DNA of 56,939 nt from Betaproteobacteria bacterium (lineage in GTDB: Bacteria > Pseudomonadota > Gammaproteobacteria > Burkholderiales > Usitatibacteraceae): assembly GCA_037445795.1 (NCBI GenBank), contig JBBIJT010000002.1, positions 1-56,939 of the forward strand, read 5' to 3'. Below the pieces are notes generated by a model that saw nothing but the letters and a program-made list of their open reading frames with translations, did no database searches and was not told where the DNA came from. Made by a program: the position numbers and the translations under genes. Shown one piece after another: positions 31,945 to 41,763 of this stretch. The stretch's first letter is position 1; every line of letters begins with the position of its first letter.

Positions 31945-32529
31945 CTAGCGGCGGCGGAAGCGGAAGACGCCGAGGCTGCCCAGCAGGTTGGGCAGCGTCC
32001 CCACGATCCTGCCCTGGTGCAGCACGCGCTCGTCGAGGATCTCCGCGCCCACCTGCACGCAGAGCGCCTCGAAATCCTTGACCGTGCACAGGTGGATGTT
32101 GGGCGTGTCGTACCACTGGTAGGGCAGCGACTCCGACACCGGCATGCGCCCCTTGAGGATCGCGAGCCGGTGCCGCCAGTAGCCGAAGTTGGGGAAGGTG
32201 ACGATCCCCTCGCGCCCCACGCGCAGCATTTCCGCGAGGAGCAGGTCCGAGCGGCGCATCGCCTGGAGCGTCTGCGAGAGGATCACGAAGTCGAAGGCGT
32301 CGTCCTCGAAGTTGGAGAGCCCCGTCTCCAGGTCCACCTGGATCACGTTCACGCCGTGGCCCACGGCCGCGAGTACGCGGTCGGGGTCGATCTCCACGCC
32401 GTAGCCCTTGACGCCGCGCGTGGCCGCGAGCCCGGCGAGGAGCTGGCCGTCGCCGCAGCCCAGGTCGAGCACGCGCGCGCCCTCCGGGATCCACGAGGCG
32501 ATGAGGTCGAAGTCGAAACGGGGCGTCAT
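31945..32529 (-). CDS. metW: Methionine biosynthesis protein MetW
   Basis: ATG at 32529 overlaps the metX stop (ATGA). The protein reads [28 protein letters not shown]. Confidence 0.92.
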
Positions 32530-33752
32530 GCGGCCCTCCCCTTGGCGGCGTAGCCCTTCATCTCCTCGAGCTCCGTGCCTCCGACGACGAGCGCCCGCTC
32601 GCGCCGGCCCGCGCCCACCTCCTCCGCCACGTTGTCCATGTAGGCCGCCACCACCCGGTGGTAGTGCGCGTCGTCGAGCAGGAACGCGTCGTGCCCGTGC
32701 GGCGCGTCGATCTCGGCGTAGGTCACGTTCTTGCCGCCCTTCACCAGCGCCTTCACGATCTCGCGCGAGCGCTCCGGCGGGAAGCGCCAGTCGCTCGTGA
32801 AGGAGGCCACCAGGAAGCCCGCCTTCGCCGCCGCCACTGCCTTGGCGAAGTCGCCGCCCGTCTCGCGCGCCGGGTCGAAGTAGTCCAGCGCCTTGGTCAT
32901 GATGAGGTAGGTGTTGGCGTCGAACACCTGCGCGAACTTGTCGCCCTGGTAGCGCAAGTAGGACTCGATCTCGAACTCCACGTCGTAGTTGAAGCCGTAG
33001 TCGTCGCCCTTGATCTCGCGCCCGAACTTCTCGCCCAGCAGGTCCTCGGAGAGGTAGGTGATGTGGCCCAGCATGCGGGCGAGCTTGAGGCCGCGCGCCG
33101 GGAAGGTCTTCATGGCGTAGAAGTTGCCCCCGTGGAAATCCGGGTCCGAGACGATCGCCTGCCGCGCCACGTCGTTGAAGGCGATGTTCTGCGTCGAGAG
33201 CTTGGGCGCCGCCGCGATCACGATGGCGTGCGCGATGCGGTCCGGGAAGTCGAGCGTCCACTGCAGCGCCTGCATGCCGCCCAGCGAGCCGCCCATGGCC
33301 GCGGCGAGGCGCCCGATGCCGAGGCGGTCCATGAGGCGCGCCTGCGAGGCGACCCAGTCCTCGACGGTGACGAGCGGAAAACCGGCCCCGTAGGGCTGGC
33401 CGGTGGAGCGGTCGATGGTGGCCGGCCCCGTGGAGCCGTGGCAGCCCCCGAGGTTGTTCACGCCGACCACGAAGAAGCGGTCGGTGTCGATCGCCTTGCC
33501 GGGCCCGATCATGTTGTCCCACCAGCCCAGCTTCTTCGGGCTGTCGGCGTGCCAGCCGGCCACGTGGTGGTTGCCGGAGAGCGCGTGGCAGACGAGCACC
33601 GCGTTGGACCGGTCGGCGTTGAGCCTGCCGTAGGTCTCGTAGACGAGCTCGTAGGAGGCGAGCGTGCGCCCGCCCTTGAGGATCAGGGGCTCGAGGAAGC
33701 CCGCGCGCTGCGGCGCGACCTCTCCCACGGAGCCGACAGGAATTTCGCTCAT
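32526..33752 (-). CDS. metX: Homoserine O-acyltransferase (MetX family)
   Basis: ATG at 33752 ([10 protein letters not shown]...). The alpha/beta-hydrolase nucleophile elbow is GGSLGGMQ, and [13 protein letters not shown] is typical of MetX. The track ORF start at 33839 would read through a terminator hairpin, so I rejected it. Confidence 0.93.
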
Positions 33753-33771
33753 TGCACGACGCCCGAGAATG

Positions 33772-33804
33772 AAAAAACCCGACCGGCTATCGCGGGGTCG
33801 GGTT
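33772..33804 (-). terminator. Intrinsic terminator inside the metX leader (attenuator)
   Basis: The minus strand reads AACCCGACC-ccgcgatagcc-GGTCGGGTTTTTT. That is a 9-bp stem followed by a T-run of 6, ending 19 nt before the metX ATG. No gene lies upstream on this strand, because DUF502 is divergent. Confidence 0.75.
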
Positions 33805-33890
33805 CTCTTCGGGAGACCTGCCTCTCGCTTTAGCCGCATTTATTTCGCGCCCGCAAGCTGAGCTCAAATTCGGCGCGTGGGCCCATTATA
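33805..33890 (-). promoter_or_regulatory. metX promoter -10 (TATAAT) plus structured 5' leader; candidate riboswitch/attenuator
   Basis: On the minus strand a perfect TATAAT lies at 33890-33885. It is followed by an ~80-nt leader containing a 6-bp GC helix (CGCGCC...GGCGCG). The loop of that helix carries GCUU, which could pair with the AAGC of a downstream GCUAAAGC tract. Confidence 0.5.
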
Positions 33891-33995
33891 CGGGCGCCGC
33901 GGCCCGGCGCGCCAGCGCAGGGCCCGGATGATCCGGATCAAGGCCTCGCGGGAGCGCGCGCGTAGCGTGGGCTGGCAGTCCGCAAAGGAGGGCAC

Positions 33996-34589
33996 ATGAA
34001 AGAAACTCTCGGGTACGCCGCCAAGGCCACGCTTCGCGGGCTGCTCATCGTGGCCCCGATCTATCTCGCGATCCTGCTGCTGCTCAAGGGGATGAAGTCG
34101 GTGGCGAAGCTGGTGAGCCCGTTCACGCAGCTGCTTCCGGCGTGGGTCCCGGCCGAGGAGGCGCTGTCGCTGCTCCTCGTCTTGGCGATCTGCTTCCTGA
34201 TCGGTGCTTCCGTGGGCACCCGGGCAGGCGAGGGCGCCCGCCGCTGGATCGAAGGGGCGCTCCTGCAGAGGATCCCCGGCTACTCGCTCCTGCGCAGCCT
34301 CACGCAGCAGGTGGCTGGCGAAAGCCGGGAGAAGACCTGGAAGGCCGCCCTCTTCCAGAGCGACGAGGCGCTGGTTCCCGCCTTCATCATCGAGGAGCTG
34401 GACGACGGGCGCTACACCGTCTTCGTCCCGTCGATCCCCACGCCCTTCGCCGGCGCGGTCTACGTCCTCGACCGCCAGCGCGTGCATCCGGTGGACGTGC
34501 CCTTCACCGACGCCGTCAAGGTCGTCTCGCGCTGGGGTTCCGGCGCGAAGGACCTCGTGGCGGCGATGGAGAAGGGCGGCAAGCCCTAG
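33996..34589 (+). CDS. DUF502-family membrane protein
   Basis: 197-aa ORF with two N-terminal TM helices (GLLIVAPIYLAILLLLKG, LSLLLVLAICFLIGA). The C-terminal block (YTVFVPSIPTPFAGAVYVL) is typical of DUF502. Confidence 0.75.
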   Translation: MKETLGYAAKATLRGLLIVAPIYLAILLLLKGMKSVAKLVSPFTQLLPAWVPAEEALSLLLVLAICFLIGASVGTRAGEGARRWIEGALLQRIPGYSLLRSLTQQVAGESREKTWKAALFQSDEALVPAFIIEELDDGRYTVFVPSIPTPFAGAVYVLDRQRVHPVDVPFTDAVKVVSRWGSGAKDLVAAMEKGGKP

Positions 34590-35146
34590 TTCAGGTCGTC
34601 GTCCTTGTAGTACTTCGTTCCCTTGGCGGTGAGCTCGAGGGCGAGGCCGTCGCCCGTGAGCTGGTACAGCCACACGCCGGGCGCCACGGCGACGGCGCCC
34701 TGGTAGGAGTCGCCCTTGCCGCCGGCCTTGGCCGCCGCGGTGGCCTGCGCGCCGATGGCCCACCCGGAGGTGACGAACTCGTTGAGGGCCTTGTCCGTCT
34801 CGAACACCCACACGAGCTGGAACTTCTTCACGCCGAAGCCGATCCCCGCCTGGACCTCCGCCATCTTCATGTAGGTGACCGCCTTGGTCTTGTTGTTGAC
34901 GGCGATGCCCTTGCCCGAGCCGCCGCCCGCCACGAAGATCTTCATGCCGAAGTTGCTGAAGGCGGCGTAACCGGCCGCCGATTCCACCGCCTTCTTCGCG
35001 GACGGCTGCACCTTGTAGACCGCGGACAGGGCCGACTGGCCCGCCTTCTTCACTTCCGCCTGCGATTCCGCCTTGCTGGCCGCCAGGGCCAGGCCGGGTG
35101 TCGCCATCGCGAGTGCCACGGCGAGGATCATCGTGCGTCTTTTCAC
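34586..35146 (-). CDS. Secreted SYLF (DUF500/Ysc84-like lipid-binding) domain protein
   Basis: 186-aa ORF with signal peptide MKRRTMILAVALAMATPGLALA. SYLF-like blocks are present: FVAGGGSGKGIAV, QAGIGFGV, WAIGAQATAAA and GLALELTAKG. Confidence 0.6.
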   Translation of the reverse strand: MKRRTMILAVALAMATPGLALAASKAESQAEVKKAGQSALSAVYKVQPSAKKAVESAAGYAAFSNFGMKIFVAGGGSGKGIAVNNKTKAVTYMKMAEVQAGIGFGVKKFQLVWVFETDKALNEFVTSGWAIGAQATAAAKAGGKGDSYQGAVAVAPGVWLYQLTGDGLALELTAKGTKYYKDDDLN

Positions 35147-35168
35147 TGCGCTCTCCTTTCGTCGCTGT

Positions 35169-35819
35169 TTAGAACGTCATTCCGACCGACGCGACGAACA
35201 CCTGGTCCGTCGTGCCGGGATTGAACCACCAAGCGCCAAGGGTGAAGGCGCCGATCGTGGCCTGGGCGAACGGCCCGCGCTGGATCTCGCGGTCCGTGCC
35301 GTAGACGCGGGTACGCTGGGCCACGATGCCGGCCCTGAGCCGCTCCAGCGGCCGGAAGGCCACCTCGCTCCACGCGTAGTTGTAGGTGCTCGCCCCCTCG
35401 GTGCGGTCGCGCACGTGCTCGAATTCGACGTATAAGTCGAACCGGCCGGCGGCCACGCTCGCCTCGAATCCGGCGATCGGCCCGCGCACGTCGCCGGCCG
35501 CGCCGCCCACGATCGGCGTGAGTTCGAATTTGACCTCGTCCCCGCCGGAGAACGTCCACCCGGCGAAGGCCGACCGGGCGTGCCGGCCCTCGTAGTTCAC
35601 CCGGGCTTCGAGGTGGAGCGCGGCGCGGTCCGCCGCGAAGATGCCGGAGGCGTAGCCGTCGCCGCCCCTGGGCGCATTCCAGTAGCCGTTGGCGGCGAAT
35701 TCCCAGCCGGGCTTTTCGGGGTTCGCGGCCCGCCGCCCTTCCGCAGCCGCTTCCTGCGCCGACGCGGCCCCCGCGGCGAGCAGGAAGGCGAATGCCGCGA
35801 TGACTGCCTTGCCGTTCAT
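35169..35819 (-). CDS. Small outer-membrane beta-barrel protein (hypothetical)
   Basis: 216-aa ORF with a signal peptide (AAGAASA/QE), alternating hydrophobic beta-strand pattern and a C-terminal ...VGMTF. The start overlaps the VIT stop (ATGA). Confidence 0.6.
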   Translation of the reverse strand: MNGKAVIAAFAFLLAAGAASAQEAAAEGRRAANPEKPGWEFAANGYWNAPRGGDGYASGIFAADRAALHLEARVNYEGRHARSAFAGWTFSGGDEVKFELTPIVGGAAGDVRGPIAGFEASVAAGRFDLYVEFEHVRDRTEGASTYNYAWSEVAFRPLERLRAGIVAQRTRVYGTDREIQRGPFAQATIGAFTLGAWWFNPGTTDQVFVASVGMTF

Positions 35820-36487
35820 CCGCCGAGCGCCGTGATCGCGACGACGAGGGCTGCGCCGAGCCCCATGAGGACGAACCCCGTCCGCAGGCTGCCATAGCCG
35901 GCGTAGCGCCCCAGCGCCAGCCCGCCGAGGAAGAGCATCGCGAGCGCCGTGACGCGCGAGGCGACCATCGCCGAGCCGACGTCCTTGAACAGGATGAAGG
36001 GAACGACCACGGGGAAGGTCGCCGCGACCACGATCAGGAAGATGGCCACGGCGGCGAGCGCATCGTCGCGTCCCAGCGTCGGCCGGTCCGGAATGGAGGG
36101 CATCGCGACGATCCGCCCGCGGATCGCCTCGATCTCCGTTTCCGTCACGAGGCCCGGCGTGGCCTGCGACAGTGCGCGCGCGACGTGGGCCCGGCCGGCC
36201 GCGGCGTCAGGCGCGCTGCGAACGGCCTGCGCGAGCGTGAGCTTCCGGCCGCGCTCCGTGATGGTCCGCACGAGGTACATCACGGCGTCCACCAGCCCCC
36301 AGGCGAGGTTGCAGCCGAGGGCCGCGATGAACATGGTCCGGATCTCCTCCCGTCCCGCCGTGGCCGCGGACACCGCGCCGATGAAGGTGAGGGCCATGAA
36401 CAGCCCGAAGAGCATTTCGGACACGCGGTCGACGGGACTGAGGATCGATCCGCGGTCCTCTTCTTCGTGGGTCGTCTGCTCGCTCAA
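35816..36487 (-). CDS. VIT1/CCC1-family (Fe/Mn) transporter-like membrane protein
   Basis: 223-aa ORF whose TTG start overlaps the sulP stop. The N-terminal cytoplasmic region, the SEMLFGLFMALTFIGAVSAA block and the C-terminal TM helices resemble short bacterial VIT-family proteins. Confidence 0.55.
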   Translation of the reverse strand: MSEQTTHEEEDRGSILSPVDRVSEMLFGLFMALTFIGAVSAATAGREEIRTMFIAALGCNLAWGLVDAVMYLVRTITERGRKLTLAQAVRSAPDAAAGRAHVARALSQATPGLVTETEIEAIRGRIVAMPSIPDRPTLGRDDALAAVAIFLIVVAATFPVVVPFILFKDVGSAMVASRVTALAMLFLGGLALGRYAGYGSLRTGFVLMGLGAALVVAITALGG

Positions 36488-38187
36488 GCGGGGGCTCCTT
36501 TCGAGGTGTCACCTCGCGCCTGGAAGGCCGCCACCGCGTCCTCCACCGTGAAGTGCATGCGGCTGCGCCCGAGGGTCTCGGCGAGCGGCGTGCGCCGGAT
36601 CATTTCGAGCGCCTCCGGGTTCAGGGCGGCGAGCCAGAGCTCGATCCCGTGATCGCGAAGCTGCGCCTCCGCCGCGACGAGCATCCGCAGCGCCGTGAAC
36701 TCGAACCCGGGGATGGCGCCGCAGTCGAGGAGACAAACCCGGGGCTGGTGCTGCGTGACCAGCGCGCGCATCTTCTCGCCGAAGGCGGAAGCGTTGCCGA
36801 AGTACATGCGGCCCTGCGTCCTCAGGATCAGCAGCCCCGGAATCGCCTCGTCATCGGGATGTTCCTCGGTGCGTGGCCGGAACACGTGCGTCCCGGGCTT
36901 GCGGCCCAGGACGTGGACCGGGGGATTGTTCGCGAGGTGCATCAGCCCCGCCATGGACAGGAGCACGGCGACGAGGATGCCGTTGAGCGTGCCCAGCACC
37001 ATCACCCCGAGGCAGGCCGCGAACGCCCACCGGAACTCCATCGTGCGGACGCGGTGGATCTTCTCGAGCTCCGTGGGGCTGATGAGGCCGACGGAGTAGG
37101 CGATCACGACGGCGGCCAGCGTGGCGTTGGGCATCGGCGCGAGGACCGGCGCGAGGAAGAGCATCGTCGCGAGCGCGGCTGCCGCCGTTACGAGCTCGGC
37201 CGCCTGCGTGCGGGCACCCGCTCCGCGGTTCACGTTGGTCTGCGACGTGCCGCCGCCCGCGGGCATCGCGCCGAAGAGCCCGCCGATGGCGTTGGCCGCG
37301 CCGATGCCCACCAGCTCCTGGTTGGAATCCGGCCTCGGGTCTCCTTCCCGCGCGAAGGCGCGCCCCGCCGCGATCGATTCCGTGAAGCTCATGAGCGCGA
37401 TGCCGGCCGCCGCGGGCCACATTTCGAGGACGAGGGAGAGGTCCGGGAGCGTGAGGGAGGGGAATCCGCCGGGGATCGTTCCCACGACGCTGACACCCTG
37501 CGCCTTGAGGCCCAGCATCGCCGAGGCCGCGATGCCGCCGGCCACGGCCACCAGCGGCGCCGGCGCGCGCGGCACGAACTTCTCGAACACCCCGATCACG
37601 GCGAAGGTCCCCACCGCGACGGCGAGCGTGGCGATGGAAGTCGACGGGACGTGCTGCGCGATCGCCACGACGTCGCGGAAGAACCCCGCCTTGTCGATGT
37701 GGATGCCGAGAAGCTTCGGGAACTGGTCGACGACGATGACGAAGCCGATCCCCGCCTTGAAGCCGGTGAGCACCGGGTCCGAGATGAAGTTCGCCACGAA
37801 GCCGAGCCGGAAGAGGCGGGCGGCCAGCAGGAGCGCGCCCACCAGGATGGTGAGCGTGGCGGTCGCGGTGACGGGGCTCAGGCCCGGGTGCGCCTGCACC
37901 GCGGCGCCCAGCGCGGTCGCGCCCAGGATGGCGATCGTCGTCGTGGTGCTCACGCTCAGCAGCCGCGACGTGCCCAGGAGGGCATAGACGACCATCGGCA
38001 GGAACGCGGTGTAGAGGCCCACCTGGAGCGGAAGCCCCGCGATCGTCGCGTAGGCCATCGCCTTCGGAATCACGATGGCGGCCGTCGTTAGGCCGGCGAC
38101 GACATCCGCTTTGAGCCACGATTTCTCGTAGGCCGAGATCCAGCCGATCGCGGGGATCAAGGGCGTGCCGGGATGGGAAGTGCTCAT
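36484..38187 (-). CDS. SulP-family anion permease with C-terminal STAS domain
   Basis: ATG at 38187 (MSTSHPGTPLIPAIGWISAYEKSWLKADVVAGLTTAAIVIPKAMAYATIAGLP). It has a polytopic core and a STAS-like tail (LLILRTQGRMYFGNA...LDCGAIPGFEFTAL). Confidence 0.9.
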   Translation of the reverse strand: MSTSHPGTPLIPAIGWISAYEKSWLKADVVAGLTTAAIVIPKAMAYATIAGLPLQVGLYTAFLPMVVYALLGTSRLLSVSTTTTIAILGATALGAAVQAHPGLSPVTATATLTILVGALLLAARLFRLGFVANFISDPVLTGFKAGIGFVIVVDQFPKLLGIHIDKAGFFRDVVAIAQHVPSTSIATLAVAVGTFAVIGVFEKFVPRAPAPLVAVAGGIAASAMLGLKAQGVSVVGTIPGGFPSLTLPDLSLVLEMWPAAAGIALMSFTESIAAGRAFAREGDPRPDSNQELVGIGAANAIGGLFGAMPAGGGTSQTNVNRGAGARTQAAELVTAAAALATMLFLAPVLAPMPNATLAAVVIAYSVGLISPTELEKIHRVRTMEFRWAFAACLGVMVLGTLNGILVAVLLSMAGLMHLANNPPVHVLGRKPGTHVFRPRTEEHPDDEAIPGLLILRTQGRMYFGNASAFGEKMRALVTQHQPRVCLLDCGAIPGFEFTALRMLVAAEAQLRDHGIELWLAALNPEALEMIRRTPLAETLGRSRMHFTVEDAVAAFQARGDTSKGAPA

Positions 38188-38304
38188 CGATCGCCTCTCG
38201 AGTTGGTCCGCGACACGGGCACCCCCGCTGCAGTTGGCGCAGCCGCGGGACATCCGGCCCAGTATGCGGGAAAGCCGGCCCCGGAGGCGAGGAACCCCGG
38301 CCTT

Positions 38305-38835
38305 TCAGGGCTCGAGGCGCCGGACGGGACCGCTGCCGTCCCAGCGCAGTGCTTCCTTCCGGATCATTTCGTATACGCCCCGGTTGTCGGCGCCCAGCGA
38401 GGTGAGCTTGAGCGTGGTGCCGGGATGCCCCTTGGAGGCGAAGTAGGCGAATCTCACGGCAGGCGAGCTGACCACGCCCGACTGCGCGATGCGCAGGCCG
38501 GCTTCCGTGGCGCGCCGCAGGTCGCTGTCGTAGTGATCGCTGAGAAATCCCAGGTGGTGCAGCCCCTCGTGCCCGGCCGCCAGGAAGTCCCGGTAGAGGC
38601 TCGGCCTGTCGTCGCGCGGCTGGATCAGCTCGATCTGCATGTCGCCCGAATAGGTGAGCGCCACGCTTCCCTCGACGCGCCCCGACTCGTCGTCGTAGCG
38701 CAGCACCCCGAGGTGCACGCGCTCGAGGTAATAGAACGGGCCGATGCGCAGGGCCCGGGTCCAGTGGGCCATGGCCGCATCGATGTCGCGCACCACGTAT
38801 CCCAGTTGGCGGATCGGACCGAAGAACTGACTCAT
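38305..38835 (-). CDS. VOC-family (glyoxalase/extradiol dioxygenase fold) protein
   Basis: 176 aa from ATG 38835 (MSQFFGPIRQLGYVVRDIDAAMAHW...HHLGF...), with ATG 38844 as an alternative. The rest of track ORF 38305-41928 is a shadow of the LAL gene. Confidence 0.8.
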   Translation of the reverse strand: MSQFFGPIRQLGYVVRDIDAAMAHWTRALRIGPFYYLERVHLGVLRYDDESGRVEGSVALTYSGDMQIELIQPRDDRPSLYRDFLAAGHEGLHHLGFLSDHYDSDLRRATEAGLRIAQSGVVSSPAVRFAYFASKGHPGTTLKLTSLGADNRGVYEMIRKEALRWDGSGPVRRLEP

Positions 38836-38908
38836 CGTTGGCATCCTCGACGCATGCGGTGGCGGTCGTTGTCGCATCACCCGGGAGCCATTCTCGGAAA
38901 TCGGGCCT

Positions 38909-38943
38909 CGGGCGGCCCCACTCGTGCCGGGGGGGGCCGCCCG
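38909..38943. promoter_or_regulatory. GC-rich inverted repeat CGGGCGGCCCC-N13-GGGGCCGCCCG in the VOC/LAL divergent gap
   Basis: An 11-bp perfect inverted repeat read directly from the sequence. It lies 74 nt upstream of the VOC ATG and 118 nt upstream of the LAL ATG. Confidence 0.3.
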
Positions 38944-39060
38944 GGAGTCGCCTGGAGGCGGCCGGCGTTCCGCTTGGGGTGGCGTTTGCGGTAACCTTTC
39001 GGAGATGACGCAGCGCAGCCGCGCAGAGCCGCACGCGGACATCGAGGAGAGAGCAGGAAG

Positions 39061-41763
39061 ATGACGCCGGGTGCGAGAGACCCGCAGCTCGTCCTGAAAG
39101 CCACGCCGCCCAAGCTTCCCAAGACGCTTCTGGCACGGCCGCGGCTGAGCTGCTACGGCCCGGAGCTCGCCGACAAGCCCATCCTTCTTGTCCACGCGCC
39201 GTCGGGCTTCGGAAAGACGTCGCTGCTCGCGCAGTGGCGGCGCGAAGCGCTGCAACACGGGGCGGTGGTCGCCTGGCTGACGCTGGACGATCGCGACGAC
39301 GGGGCGCGCATCGTCCAGTCGCTGTCGGTCGCCCTGAGCATGAGCGGCGGACGGCGAAGCGCCGGTCCTTCGTATTCGCGGGCCGACGCACAGGTCGAAG
39401 GCGACTTCGAAGGGATCACGGCTTGGCTGGCCGACGTGGCCGAGATGGCCGTCGAGACCGTCCTCGTCCTCGACGAGGCGCATGCGCTGCCGGAAGCGAC
39501 GGCGAGCACGATCCTCGTGTACCTGCTGAACAACGCGCCGGCCAACCTCCGGGTCGTCGTGGCTTCGCGCAAGCCGGTCGGGCTGCCGGTCTCGGACATG
39601 CTCGCCCATGGCCAGGTCCGGTCCCTGGATGCCGACGACCTGCGATTCCGGCTCACGGAAACGATCGAGATCCTCACGGCGAGATTCGGGTCCCGCATCG
39701 ACTCCGACGCCTGCGTGCGCCTGCACGATCTCACGGAGGGCTGGCCCCTGGGCCTGCAGCTCGCCATCGCCACCATCGAGAGGAGCGCGAACGTGCGCGA
39801 GGCGATCGCCGCGTTCTCGTCCCGCTCCGGCGACATCCAGCGCTACTTCGTCGAGTGCCTGGTCGACCGCCTTCCGAAGCAGCTCGCGGATTTCCTCACC
39901 GCGGTCTCCTTCGTGGATGCCCTGCACCCCCTCCTGTGCGAGGCGATCACGCAGGGTGGAGATTGCGCCCAGGCGCTGGCGAAGCTGCGGGATGCGACGC
40001 CGATCTTCGTCGAAGGCGTCGACAGCGAATGGTCGCGCATCCACCCGCTCGCGCGGGACTTCCTCAAGGAACGCTTCGAGGCGCTTCCGGCCGCCGAGCG
40101 CCGCGAGTTCCATGCGCGCGCGGCAAGCTGGCTCGCCGGGCACGAGCTGCACGAGGAGGCGGCCCGGCAGGCCCTCCGGGCGGGCCAGGACGCGCTCGCC
40201 TTCGACCTGATCGAGCGAAGTCTCTACGGGATCGTGGTGAGCGGGCAGATGTCGCGGGTCCTGGAATGGATGGAGCGCCTGCCGGCCGCGGAGCTCGAGC
40301 GCAGGTCGCGGCTGAGGCTGGCGGCGGGATGGACCTTCGCCCAGAGCGACCAGCACGCGGAAGCGGCGAAGCTCGTCGGTCCGATCGTCGCCGATCCGGC
40401 TGCGGACCCCGGGGATCGCTTCGAAAGCGCCGAGATCTGCGCCACCGCGGCCATCTTCGCCGACGACATGGAGGGGGCGGAGCGGATCTTCTCGCCCTCG
40501 GTGGATTCGCTCGCCTCGCGATCCGTGATGCAGCGCGGCGTGGCCGCCAACCTGCTCGCGGTGCGGGACCTCTATCGGGGCGCCCCGGAACAGGCGCGCC
40601 TGCGCTACGCGCAGTTCTCCGGCCCGGAGTGGGAAAGCGTCGGGGTCTACACCCACGGGTGGGGCGACTGGATCGTCGGCGTGAGCTACCTGTGGGAGGG
40701 GCAGGTTGTCCTCGGCGAAGACGCCTTGCGTGCGTCGCTGGCACGTGCCGAGCAGGAAAGCGGGCGCCGAAGTCCCATCGCCGTCATGCTGGCCTCCGCG
40801 CTCGCTTCGGTCCTCTGGGAGCGCGACCTGACCGCCGAGGCGGCGGCCCTGCTGGCCAACCGCCTCGACGTGCTCGAGCGCCGTGCAGTGCCGGAGGCCA
40901 TCATCATGGGCTACGTGACCGCCGCGCGCGTGGCGACGATCGGTGGCCTGGAACGGCGCGCCTACGACCTTCTCGACAATCTCCACGCGCTGGGCGAGGC
41001 GCGTGGGCTGCCCCGCCTTTGCGTCGCGAGCCTCGCCGAGCAGATTCGCATGCACGCCCTGCGCTCGCACGCCGAGGCCTGCGCGAGCCTCGCCGGCCGG
41101 CTCGATCGGCTCACGACGCCCGAGCAGTACGCGCGGTGGAGCGCGGTCGGGGCGCTCGTGCAGACCTGGGTCGGGCTGGCCCGCGCCTATGCGGCGGTAG
41201 TGCGGCAGGATTGGCAGCAGGTGCAGGCCGAGCTCAAGGCCATCGGCCCCGTGGCGGACGGGCTGCGCCGCGGCCGGGACGGCATCCGGATCCGCCTCCT
41301 GCGGGCGCTCGCCCTGAAGCGCTGCGGCGAGGACGGTGACGCCCTTTTCGCGGAGGGCGTGAGCCTCGCGGAAACTTATGGACTGGAGCGGATGCTGGTG
41401 GACACGCATCCCGATCTCGTGGACTGGGCCCGGCGCATGGGGAATGCCCGGTCGGGGGAGGCCGGCGCGACCACGACTCACCGACTCGCGGTGCCGTCCG
41501 CGCCCGCGCCGGCTCGGCCTGCGGCGGGGACACACCCGCATGCCCGGGTTTCGCCCAGCGCCCTGCTCACGCCCAAGGAGCGGGAAGTGCTGCAGCTGCT
41601 GGCCGGCAACATGTCCAACAAGCAGATCGCGCTGGCCCTCGGCGTGGGCGTCGAGACCGTCAAGTGGCACATGAAGAACCTGTTCGACAAGCTCAACGCC
41701 GGGACCCGGAAGCACGTCCTCGACCGGGCGCGCATGCTCGGCATCCTCGATTCCCTTGCCTGA
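39061..41763 (+). CDS. Large ATP-binding LuxR-family regulator (LAL / MalT-like STAND)
   Basis: 900-aa ORF with an N-terminal P-loop (LLVHAPSGFGKTSLL) and a long helical TPR-like middle region. The C-terminal LuxR HTH reads LTPKEREVLQLLAGNMSNKQIALALGVGVETVKWHMKNLFDKL. Confidence 0.9.
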   Translation: MTPGARDPQLVLKATPPKLPKTLLARPRLSCYGPELADKPILLVHAPSGFGKTSLLAQWRREALQHGAVVAWLTLDDRDDGARIVQSLSVALSMSGGRRSAGPSYSRADAQVEGDFEGITAWLADVAEMAVETVLVLDEAHALPEATASTILVYLLNNAPANLRVVVASRKPVGLPVSDMLAHGQVRSLDADDLRFRLTETIEILTARFGSRIDSDACVRLHDLTEGWPLGLQLAIATIERSANVREAIAAFSSRSGDIQRYFVECLVDRLPKQLADFLTAVSFVDALHPLLCEAITQGGDCAQALAKLRDATPIFVEGVDSEWSRIHPLARDFLKERFEALPAAERREFHARAASWLAGHELHEEAARQALRAGQDALAFDLIERSLYGIVVSGQMSRVLEWMERLPAAELERRSRLRLAAGWTFAQSDQHAEAAKLVGPIVADPAADPGDRFESAEICATAAIFADDMEGAERIFSPSVDSLASRSVMQRGVAANLLAVRDLYRGAPEQARLRYAQFSGPEWESVGVYTHGWGDWIVGVSYLWEGQVVLGEDALRASLARAEQESGRRSPIAVMLASALASVLWERDLTAEAAALLANRLDVLERRAVPEAIIMGYVTAARVATIGGLERRAYDLLDNLHALGEARGLPRLCVASLAEQIRMHALRSHAEACASLAGRLDRLTTPEQYARWSAVGALVQTWVGLARAYAAVVRQDWQQVQAELKAIGPVADGLRRGRDGIRIRLLRALALKRCGEDGDALFAEGVSLAETYGLERMLVDTHPDLVDWARRMGNARSGEAGATTTHRLAVPSAPAPARPAAGTHPHARVSPSALLTPKEREVLQLLAGNMSNKQIALALGVGVETVKWHMKNLFDKLNAGTRKHVLDRARMLGILDSLA

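Follow-up and report, generated by a model that had tools for sequence, protein, structure and literature searches.

The metX leader of this Betaproteobacteria bacterium very probably acts as a SAM-II riboswitch of the transcriptional OFF type that controls the metX-metW operon, and most likely it stops transcription when S-adenosylmethionine (SAM) is plentiful. The window, a stretch of 56,939 nucleotides of genomic DNA, carries this leader on the minus strand. An earlier note had proposed a SAM-responsive leader with SAM-II topology and a premature terminator, and this proposal is now backed by an Rfam match, covariation, gene context and a predicted antiterminator. The leader is an ordinary, conserved SAM-II member that fails only the Rfam score cut-off. 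By analogy with its class, it would be expected to bind SAM, to discriminate against SAH and to terminate transcription at its U tract, while the antiterminator and the switch are computed predictions. The features of the locus are as follows.

33885..33890, minus strand: -10 box TATAAT (from the sequence; all 18 genus/family leaders have a -10-like hexamer ahead of P1)
33846..33877, minus strand: P1 helix, CGCGCC at 33877-33872 with GGCGCG at 33851-33846, closing a 20-nt loop (fold; covariation)
33864..33871, minus strand: L1 third strand, G-A-A-U-U-U-G-A, one base longer than the SAM_alpha consensus (Rfam alignment)
33852..33862, minus strand: 5' strand of the pseudoknot helix P2, with P2a at 33862-33860 and P2b at 33856-33852 (Rfam alignment, covariation)
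33824..33836, minus strand: 3' strand of P2, doubling as the 5' arm of the predicted antiterminator (Rfam alignment, covariation, folding)
33784..33836, minus strand: predicted antiterminator, 33836-33831 with 33789-33784 and 33828-33826 with 33794-33792, plus inner linker helices (-23.9 kcal/mol)
33772..33804, minus strand: intrinsic terminator, stem 33802-33796 with 33784-33778 plus two A-U pairs, 11-nt apex (-14.7 to -17.3 kcal/mol)
32526..33752, minus strand: metX, homoserine O-succinyltransferase, the regulated gene (NF047916, 655 bits, cut-off 560)
31945..32532, minus strand: metW, second gene of the operon, overlapping the metX end (TIGR02081, 262 bits, cut-off 189.5)

Class identity and aptamer structure

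The TATAAT that had been noted at 33890-33885 (minus strand) is present, and the exact hexamer occurs in nine of the 18 genus/family leaders. The promoter assigned there stands as far as its -10 box is concerned, which is real and conserved; the -35 box upstream of the leader is poor in this strain, and a promoter consensus scan of the window called none at the metX leader. Transcription would start near 33878 (minus strand). The leader then measures about 107 nt to the terminator end, not the roughly 80 nt given by the earlier note, and about 126 nt to the ATG, of which the aptamer takes up about 54 nt. As had been read, the leader lies directly upstream of metX, whose ATG at 33752 (minus strand) opens MetX 19 nt past the terminator U tract, and the gene adjoining the leader on the other side (33996-34589, plus strand; weak DUF502 match) is divergent from metX. 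This adjoining gene differs from relative to relative. In the region 33996-41763, upstream of the leader, the window encodes the DUF502 gene, a Ysc84/SYLF lipoprotein, two genes without a Pfam match, a sulfate permease-STAS gene and a LuxR/AAA regulator.

The Rfam family RF00521 (SAM_alpha) matches the leader over its full length on the minus strand, with 21.8 bits (E 0.011) against a gathering cut-off of 36. Since this score falls below the database cut-off, standard annotation misses the leader, and a scan of the whole window at gathering thresholds returned no match. The low score is due in part to one extra base in L1. The Rfam scan that had been suggested as a check thus finds SAM_alpha 14 bits below its cut-off; to take the lack of an Rfam hit as refutation, as was also suggested, would have misled, because the match lies below the gathering score. 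For RF01726 (SAM-II long loops), SAM-SAH, SAH and SAM-I/IV, as well as for the SAM-V models, no match with E <= 10 was found in 33600-34100. Among 20 chosen homologous loci, 14 gave a SAM_alpha match with E <= 0.5 and five reached the cut-off of 36, four of these being betaproteobacterial, with the same core (Usitatibacter 38.6, Bordetella 37.7 and 36.3, Novimethylophilus 36.9 bits).

A model trained on 60 sequences, none of them from the family of the window, gives the aptamer 64.5 bits (E about 3.5e-12, a rough value); this score is partly circular, as the pattern behind the training sequences was itself taken from the window. The RF00521 cut-off is an operational one: of 121 genomes in the order, 63 gave a match to RF00521 with E <= 0.05 and 19 reached the cut-off. 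The new model matches 90 of the 121 with E <= 0.001 by score alone, five of which supplied training sequences.

For the covariation analysis, we used a pattern of three core motifs, which occurs at no fewer than 121 loci from named genomes spanning the alpha-, beta- and gammaproteobacteria. The 147 listed pattern matches fell to 130 when the core was limited to 47 nt, then to 122 distinct sequences and finally to 121 aligned ones, one Helicobacter match being removed by eye. Six SAM-II homologues (L029, L035, L038, L042, L079 and L085) carry a hairpin inserted in L3 and were excluded from the alignments. Among the 121 aligned homologues from the listed matches, P1 shows two-sided changes at all six pairs, with 93% of cells paired, and the outer pair of P2a shows 36 two-sided changes. 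The covariation score was 0.255, compared with 0.082 for shuffled alignments and at most 0.084 for slid registers. An additional P2b pair, G33852-C33836, is formed in 97 of 103 ungapped rows, six of them with two-sided changes (A-U and C-G swaps), and PMC2258182 predicted a further Watson-Crick pair that may be this one. Because the search pattern fixed the four central P2b pairs, these do not vary and provide no covariation evidence. Covariation among homologues, which the earlier note had named as a check, is therefore seen in P1 and in the flanking P2 pairs.

Two details of the first reading needed correction. The 6-bp GC helix is real, and the loop that it closes has 20 nt instead of 22. 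The pseudoknot pairing of GCUU with AAGC is a shifted register, with no two-sided changes and a G-C pair broken in 18 of the 121 aligned homologues; on this covariation we dropped it for the SAM-II register, in which UUGC pairs with GC-U-AA (the U being left out for SAM) and a distal P2a follows, with covariation at both ends. All P2 pairs, namely P2b with one unpaired U and the distal P2a, can form in the window.

The SAM-pocket bases of the window match the Rfam consensus, including three L1 uridines, two U-A pairs, the SAM-pairing U and the amino-acid-binding A. When the SAM-V pocket described in PMC6061858 is mapped onto the leader, U33868-U33866 would be the triplex uridines, the adenine of SAM would have U33832 as its partner, the sulfonium would look onto U33855-A33831 and U33867, and A33829 would hold the amino acid end.

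The leader shares the single stem with an H-type pseudoknot, the L1 and P2 core, a promoter located a few bases ahead of P1 and a terminator behind P2 with the metA motif of Corbino et al. 2005 (PMC1273637), the paper that defines SAM-II (RF00521) and shows SAM binding for an Agrobacterium member. Both lie upstream of methionine genes, many SAM-II members are described there with this promoter and terminator arrangement, and a Bordetella member appears in a figure legend. The leader differs in its score (21.8 bits against the cut-off of 36), its extra L1 base and its 3-bp P2a. According to PMC2258182, SAM-II is linked to terminators most often in alpha- and betaproteobacteria, and PMC6061858 describes most SAM-II members as transcriptional; SAM-II with terminators in betaproteobacteria is a matter of record, published in 2005-2007. 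The SAM-V riboswitch (Huang and Lilley 2018, PMC6061858) shares the SAM pocket and has a seven-base third strand like the L1 of this genus; SAM-II is reported there to bind SAM virtually identically to SAM-V, with nearly superimposable structures. SAM-V has a 4-bp P1, a P3 hairpin and a Shine-Dalgarno sequence directly after P2, with control of translation. We rejected SAM-V membership, as the window has a 6-bp P1, no P3, a terminator platform and no Rfam SAM-V match.

Conservation, gene context and other elements of the genome

A search of 41 genomes turned up MetX in 37, and 30 loci were taken from these. Twenty of them belong to the family of the window, and two of these end inside metX, leaving 18 leaders including that of the window. 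The aptamer, the terminator and the -10-like hexamer just upstream of P1 are present in all 18, and the DNA further upstream diverges, which makes a chance occurrence implausible. Six of ten metX loci from other families of the order also match the aptamer pattern. A MetX-like frame lies downstream of 23 of the 122 listed scan matches. Pfam was run on 72 of 116 mechanically picked downstream frames, the omitted ones being mostly of alphaproteobacterial type, and 34 of the 72 gave matches: 18 Cys/Met PLP enzymes, eight homocysteine methyltransferases, two PAPS reductase domains, two ABC ATPases and one each of homoserine succinyltransferase, SAM synthetase, amino acid kinase and OsmC. As a side observation, five homologues (L065, L149, L049, L079 and L153) stand before PAPS-reductase-domain, amino-acid-kinase and ABC ATPase genes, which are not core methionine genes. 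In three other genomes (L120, L068 and L074), two aptamer-like copies stand in series with a terminator behind the first; tandem SAM-II is known (PMC9481103).

The same genome holds a second SAM-II copy before metH (G000:C41:23485-23563, minus strand, equal to L031:1501-1579; 34 bits) with its own terminator, and this copy is predicted to switch, its terminator probability being 0.13 when free and 0.99 when blocked. A SAH riboswitch precedes ahcY (G000:C18:3682-3756, plus strand, locus L156; 69.6 bits, cut-off 37).

We also observed a tandem leader on G000:C8 (L157:915-1401, plus strand), in which a SAM-I/IV riboswitch (RF01725, 63.7 bits, cut-off 41.1) carrying a terminator-like hairpin and a U tract is followed by a SAM-II-like aptamer at 1061-1118 (44.1 bits with model R1, 19.3 with RF00521). 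Two examples of this order, SAM-I/IV and then SAM-II, are given in PMC9481103. The tail of the aptamer runs into a predicted hairpin that would cover the likely ribosome-binding site of an ORF of 74 aa, for which Pfam gave no match. The start of this ORF was found in two of 40 relatives, each time behind a SAM-II-like aptamer and with no SAM-I/IV match there, and its likeness to the relatives is confined to the first 25-45 residues, so that it may be a short peptide or a remnant.

Terminator, predicted antiterminator and rival explanations

Structural work on SAM-II centres on a translational metX member, whereas the leader in the window has a terminator. Its arms are 33804-33796 and 33784-33776, with U6 at 33777-33772 (minus strand), and the region folds with z = -2.8. 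The textbook terminator followed by T6 that had been noted is hence real as a terminator, but the six uridines include the last two bases of the 3' arm, which were counted twice. The consensus scan missed this terminator because the apex exceeds its 8-nt loop limit. A terminator-like call on the plus strand (33783-33801) was set aside because it falls within this hairpin and its U tract is poor. A longer terminator stem reaching across the sequence ahead of the start codon was also set aside, as by eye the relatives differ there.

When successive prefixes of the leader were folded with the P2 strands free, an antiterminator was predicted that encloses the linker helices as well as the entire terminator 5' arm. 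Its -23.9 kcal/mol compares with -14.7 kcal/mol for the terminator (-17.3 with the two A-U pairs), an advantage of 6.6 to 9.2 kcal/mol. In an RNA that stops at the final stem base, the terminator probability was 0.006 with the P2 strands free and about 0.97-0.98 with the P2 strands and L1 blocked or with the P2 3' strand shuffled; the blocking imitates the SAM-locked pseudoknot, to which no energy was given. Shuffling the 11-nt P2 3' strand left a terminator probability of at most 0.05 in only one of 500 trials, and shuffling the tail and linker did so in ten of 500. All 18 genus/family leaders are predicted to adopt this nested antiterminator fold. If the U tract can pair as well, the terminator prevails in the absence of any blocking (0.94 at 33772), and the switch and its read-through would therefore depend on co-transcriptional timing. 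A search of expression runs turned up none with half of the sequence words sought, and four RNA runs proved to be contigs of relatives, which bear on neither start, end nor strand.

Among the homologues as a whole, a terminator was called behind 89 of the 147 listed matches, of which five were dropped for position and 56 were left after removal of near-duplicates. In these 56 leaders, the aptamer tail pairs with the 5' half of the terminator at a mean z of -1.41, negative in 47, and swapped partners did as well in two of 10000 permutations; this is the best of eight segment pairings and kinship was removed only in part, which inflates the statistics. Several homologues form tail/terminator duplexes of 9-11 bp. 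An equilibrium switch is predicted in 25 of the 56 non-redundant homologues from the listed matches, and the unblocked terminator probability is at most 0.5 in 26 of them, compared with 11.6 expected from shuffled tails. The genus relative L014 shows no equilibrium switch. Among the other candidate partners, the P1 5' strand gave no signal in the 56 leaders and was rejected together with the P1 3' strand, which gave z = -0.75 with the 5' half of the terminator but was equalled by 724 of 10000 swaps. The P2 5' strand with the 3' half of the terminator gave a weaker second signal (z = -0.85, 181 of 10000 swaps as good), and this pairing may serve some members. As reported in PMC9373788, the terminator behind the SAM-II aptamer of S. 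meliloti metA is not predicted to be controlled by the riboswitch, and termination control is predicted for S. meliloti metZ; the metZ figure of that paper may already show a similar antiterminator.

On these predictions, the switch would work as follows. Transcription would begin near 33878, and P1 would fold first. At high SAM, the ligand would sit between the L1 uridines and P2b and lock the pseudoknot, so that 33836-33824 would be held, the terminator would form and an RNA of about 107 nt would be released. At low SAM, the free 33836-33824 would pair with the emerging 5' arm and apex of the terminator, and because this antiterminator is more stable than the terminator stem, we propose that the polymerase would pass the U tract and transcribe metX-metW.

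An aptamer that binds SAM beside an independent terminator, giving a fixed low read-through and a small RNA while SAM acts on RNA stability or translation, is an improbable alternative, yet it has the S. meliloti metA precedent (PMC9373788), the full-length equilibrium fold with its terminator in the absence of ligand, and the 31 of 56 homologues that fail the equilibrium switch test on its side. The stability advantage of the antiterminator over the isolated terminator, its need for the exact P2 3' strand and its recurrence throughout the genus/family leaders argue against it, and so does the start codon, which lies 72 nt beyond the aptamer and past the terminator. Another reading holds that the aptamer derives from SAM-II and that the extra L1 base has altered or abolished its ligand response, with weaker SAM binding or with sensing of SAH or methionine. 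This base, an A, is found in 15 of the 18 genus/family leaders, and the scored leaders with it reach 21.8-24.7 bits with RF00521, compared with 26.8-31.0 for the three without it. We regard such a change as quite unlikely, since every pocket base is kept, one platform is common to leaders with and without the extra base, and the genome has its separate SAH riboswitch before ahcY; moreover, the base is probably tolerated because the third strand of SAM-V spans seven bases (G5-G11, one of them bulged), the same length (PMC6061858).

The best Rfam match of the region is RF02424 (Bp2_287; 33.4 bits, E 8e-6, plus strand, below the cut-off of 70 bits), a family filed as an sRNA and detected as RNA by RT-PCR in its source paper (Khoo et al. 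2012, PMC3521395), and the functional RNA could accordingly be a trans- or antisense-acting sRNA of the plus strand. The -10 box, the U tract and the G-U-tolerant covariation are, however, all read on the minus strand, towards metX; the RF02424 match in Paraburkholderia (L077) likewise runs opposite to the aptamer and the metZ frame, and the source paper itself proposed a cis-acting methionine element. This makes an sRNA very unlikely. Hardly credible is ribosome-dependent attenuation, or an upstream start, at the AUG at 33839, which lies inside L3 in frame with metX and with no intervening stop: the AUG is missing in seven of the 18 genus/family leaders that are otherwise complete, and by eye it is followed by no run of Met/Cys codons and has no evident Shine-Dalgarno sequence.

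The metXZ element and Bp2_287

A "novel" metXZ element was described before metXW or metZ in 35 betaproteobacterial genomes by Leyn et al. 2014 (PMC4239095), whose available text assigns it no ligand or SAM-II link and reports SAM_alpha in alphaproteobacteria only. It shares with the present leader the position before betaproteobacterial metXW/metZ, a pseudoknot (regions 1-4 and 2-6) and a terminator with a U tract, and as matched by this text description it appears to be the same riboswitch. PMC4239095 speculates that regions 3 and 4 form an antiterminator, whereas here the P2 3' strand and tail are best supported. Bp2_287 belongs to the same sequence family. RF02424 matches the window and the loci of ten of 13 relatives, always on the opposite strand, and in Paraburkholderia (L077:310-487) it reaches 159.5 bits, again opposite to the SAM-II aptamer. 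Bp2_287 is filed as an sRNA gene, modelled opposite to the aptamer and the downstream gene, and RF02424 looks to have been modelled in the reverse complement; a 2024 review (PMC10987360) still lists Bp2_287 as an sRNA.

Taken together, the metXZ element and, on the wrong strand, Bp2_287 are probably the betaproteobacterial form of SAM-II, which would occur in most genomes of the order, mostly below the Rfam cut-off. Its members would share a platform in which the 3' pseudoknot strand serves as antiterminator partner of the 5' arm of the terminator, with a long nested hairpin and an L1 of SAM-V length in this genus. Our literature search, which covered sources outside subscription journals and extended to SAM-II antiterminators and Burkholderia metZ riboswitches, returned no paper linking the metXZ element or Bp2_287 to SAM-II and no direct biochemical test of SAM-II termination control.

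No new class, ligand or pathway is implied. The gain lies mainly in annotation: a methionine leader published as ligand-unknown receives a likely ligand, SAM; an Rfam family seemingly modelled on the wrong strand is flagged; and among 121 genomes in the order, the Rfam cut-off recovers SAM-II in 19, compared with 90 matched by a retrained model on score alone. The predicted antiterminator supplies specific mutations for probing transcription control by SAM-II, and if the unified reading of the metXZ element and Bp2_287 is true, the leader would be a compact natural test case for SAM-II control of termination.
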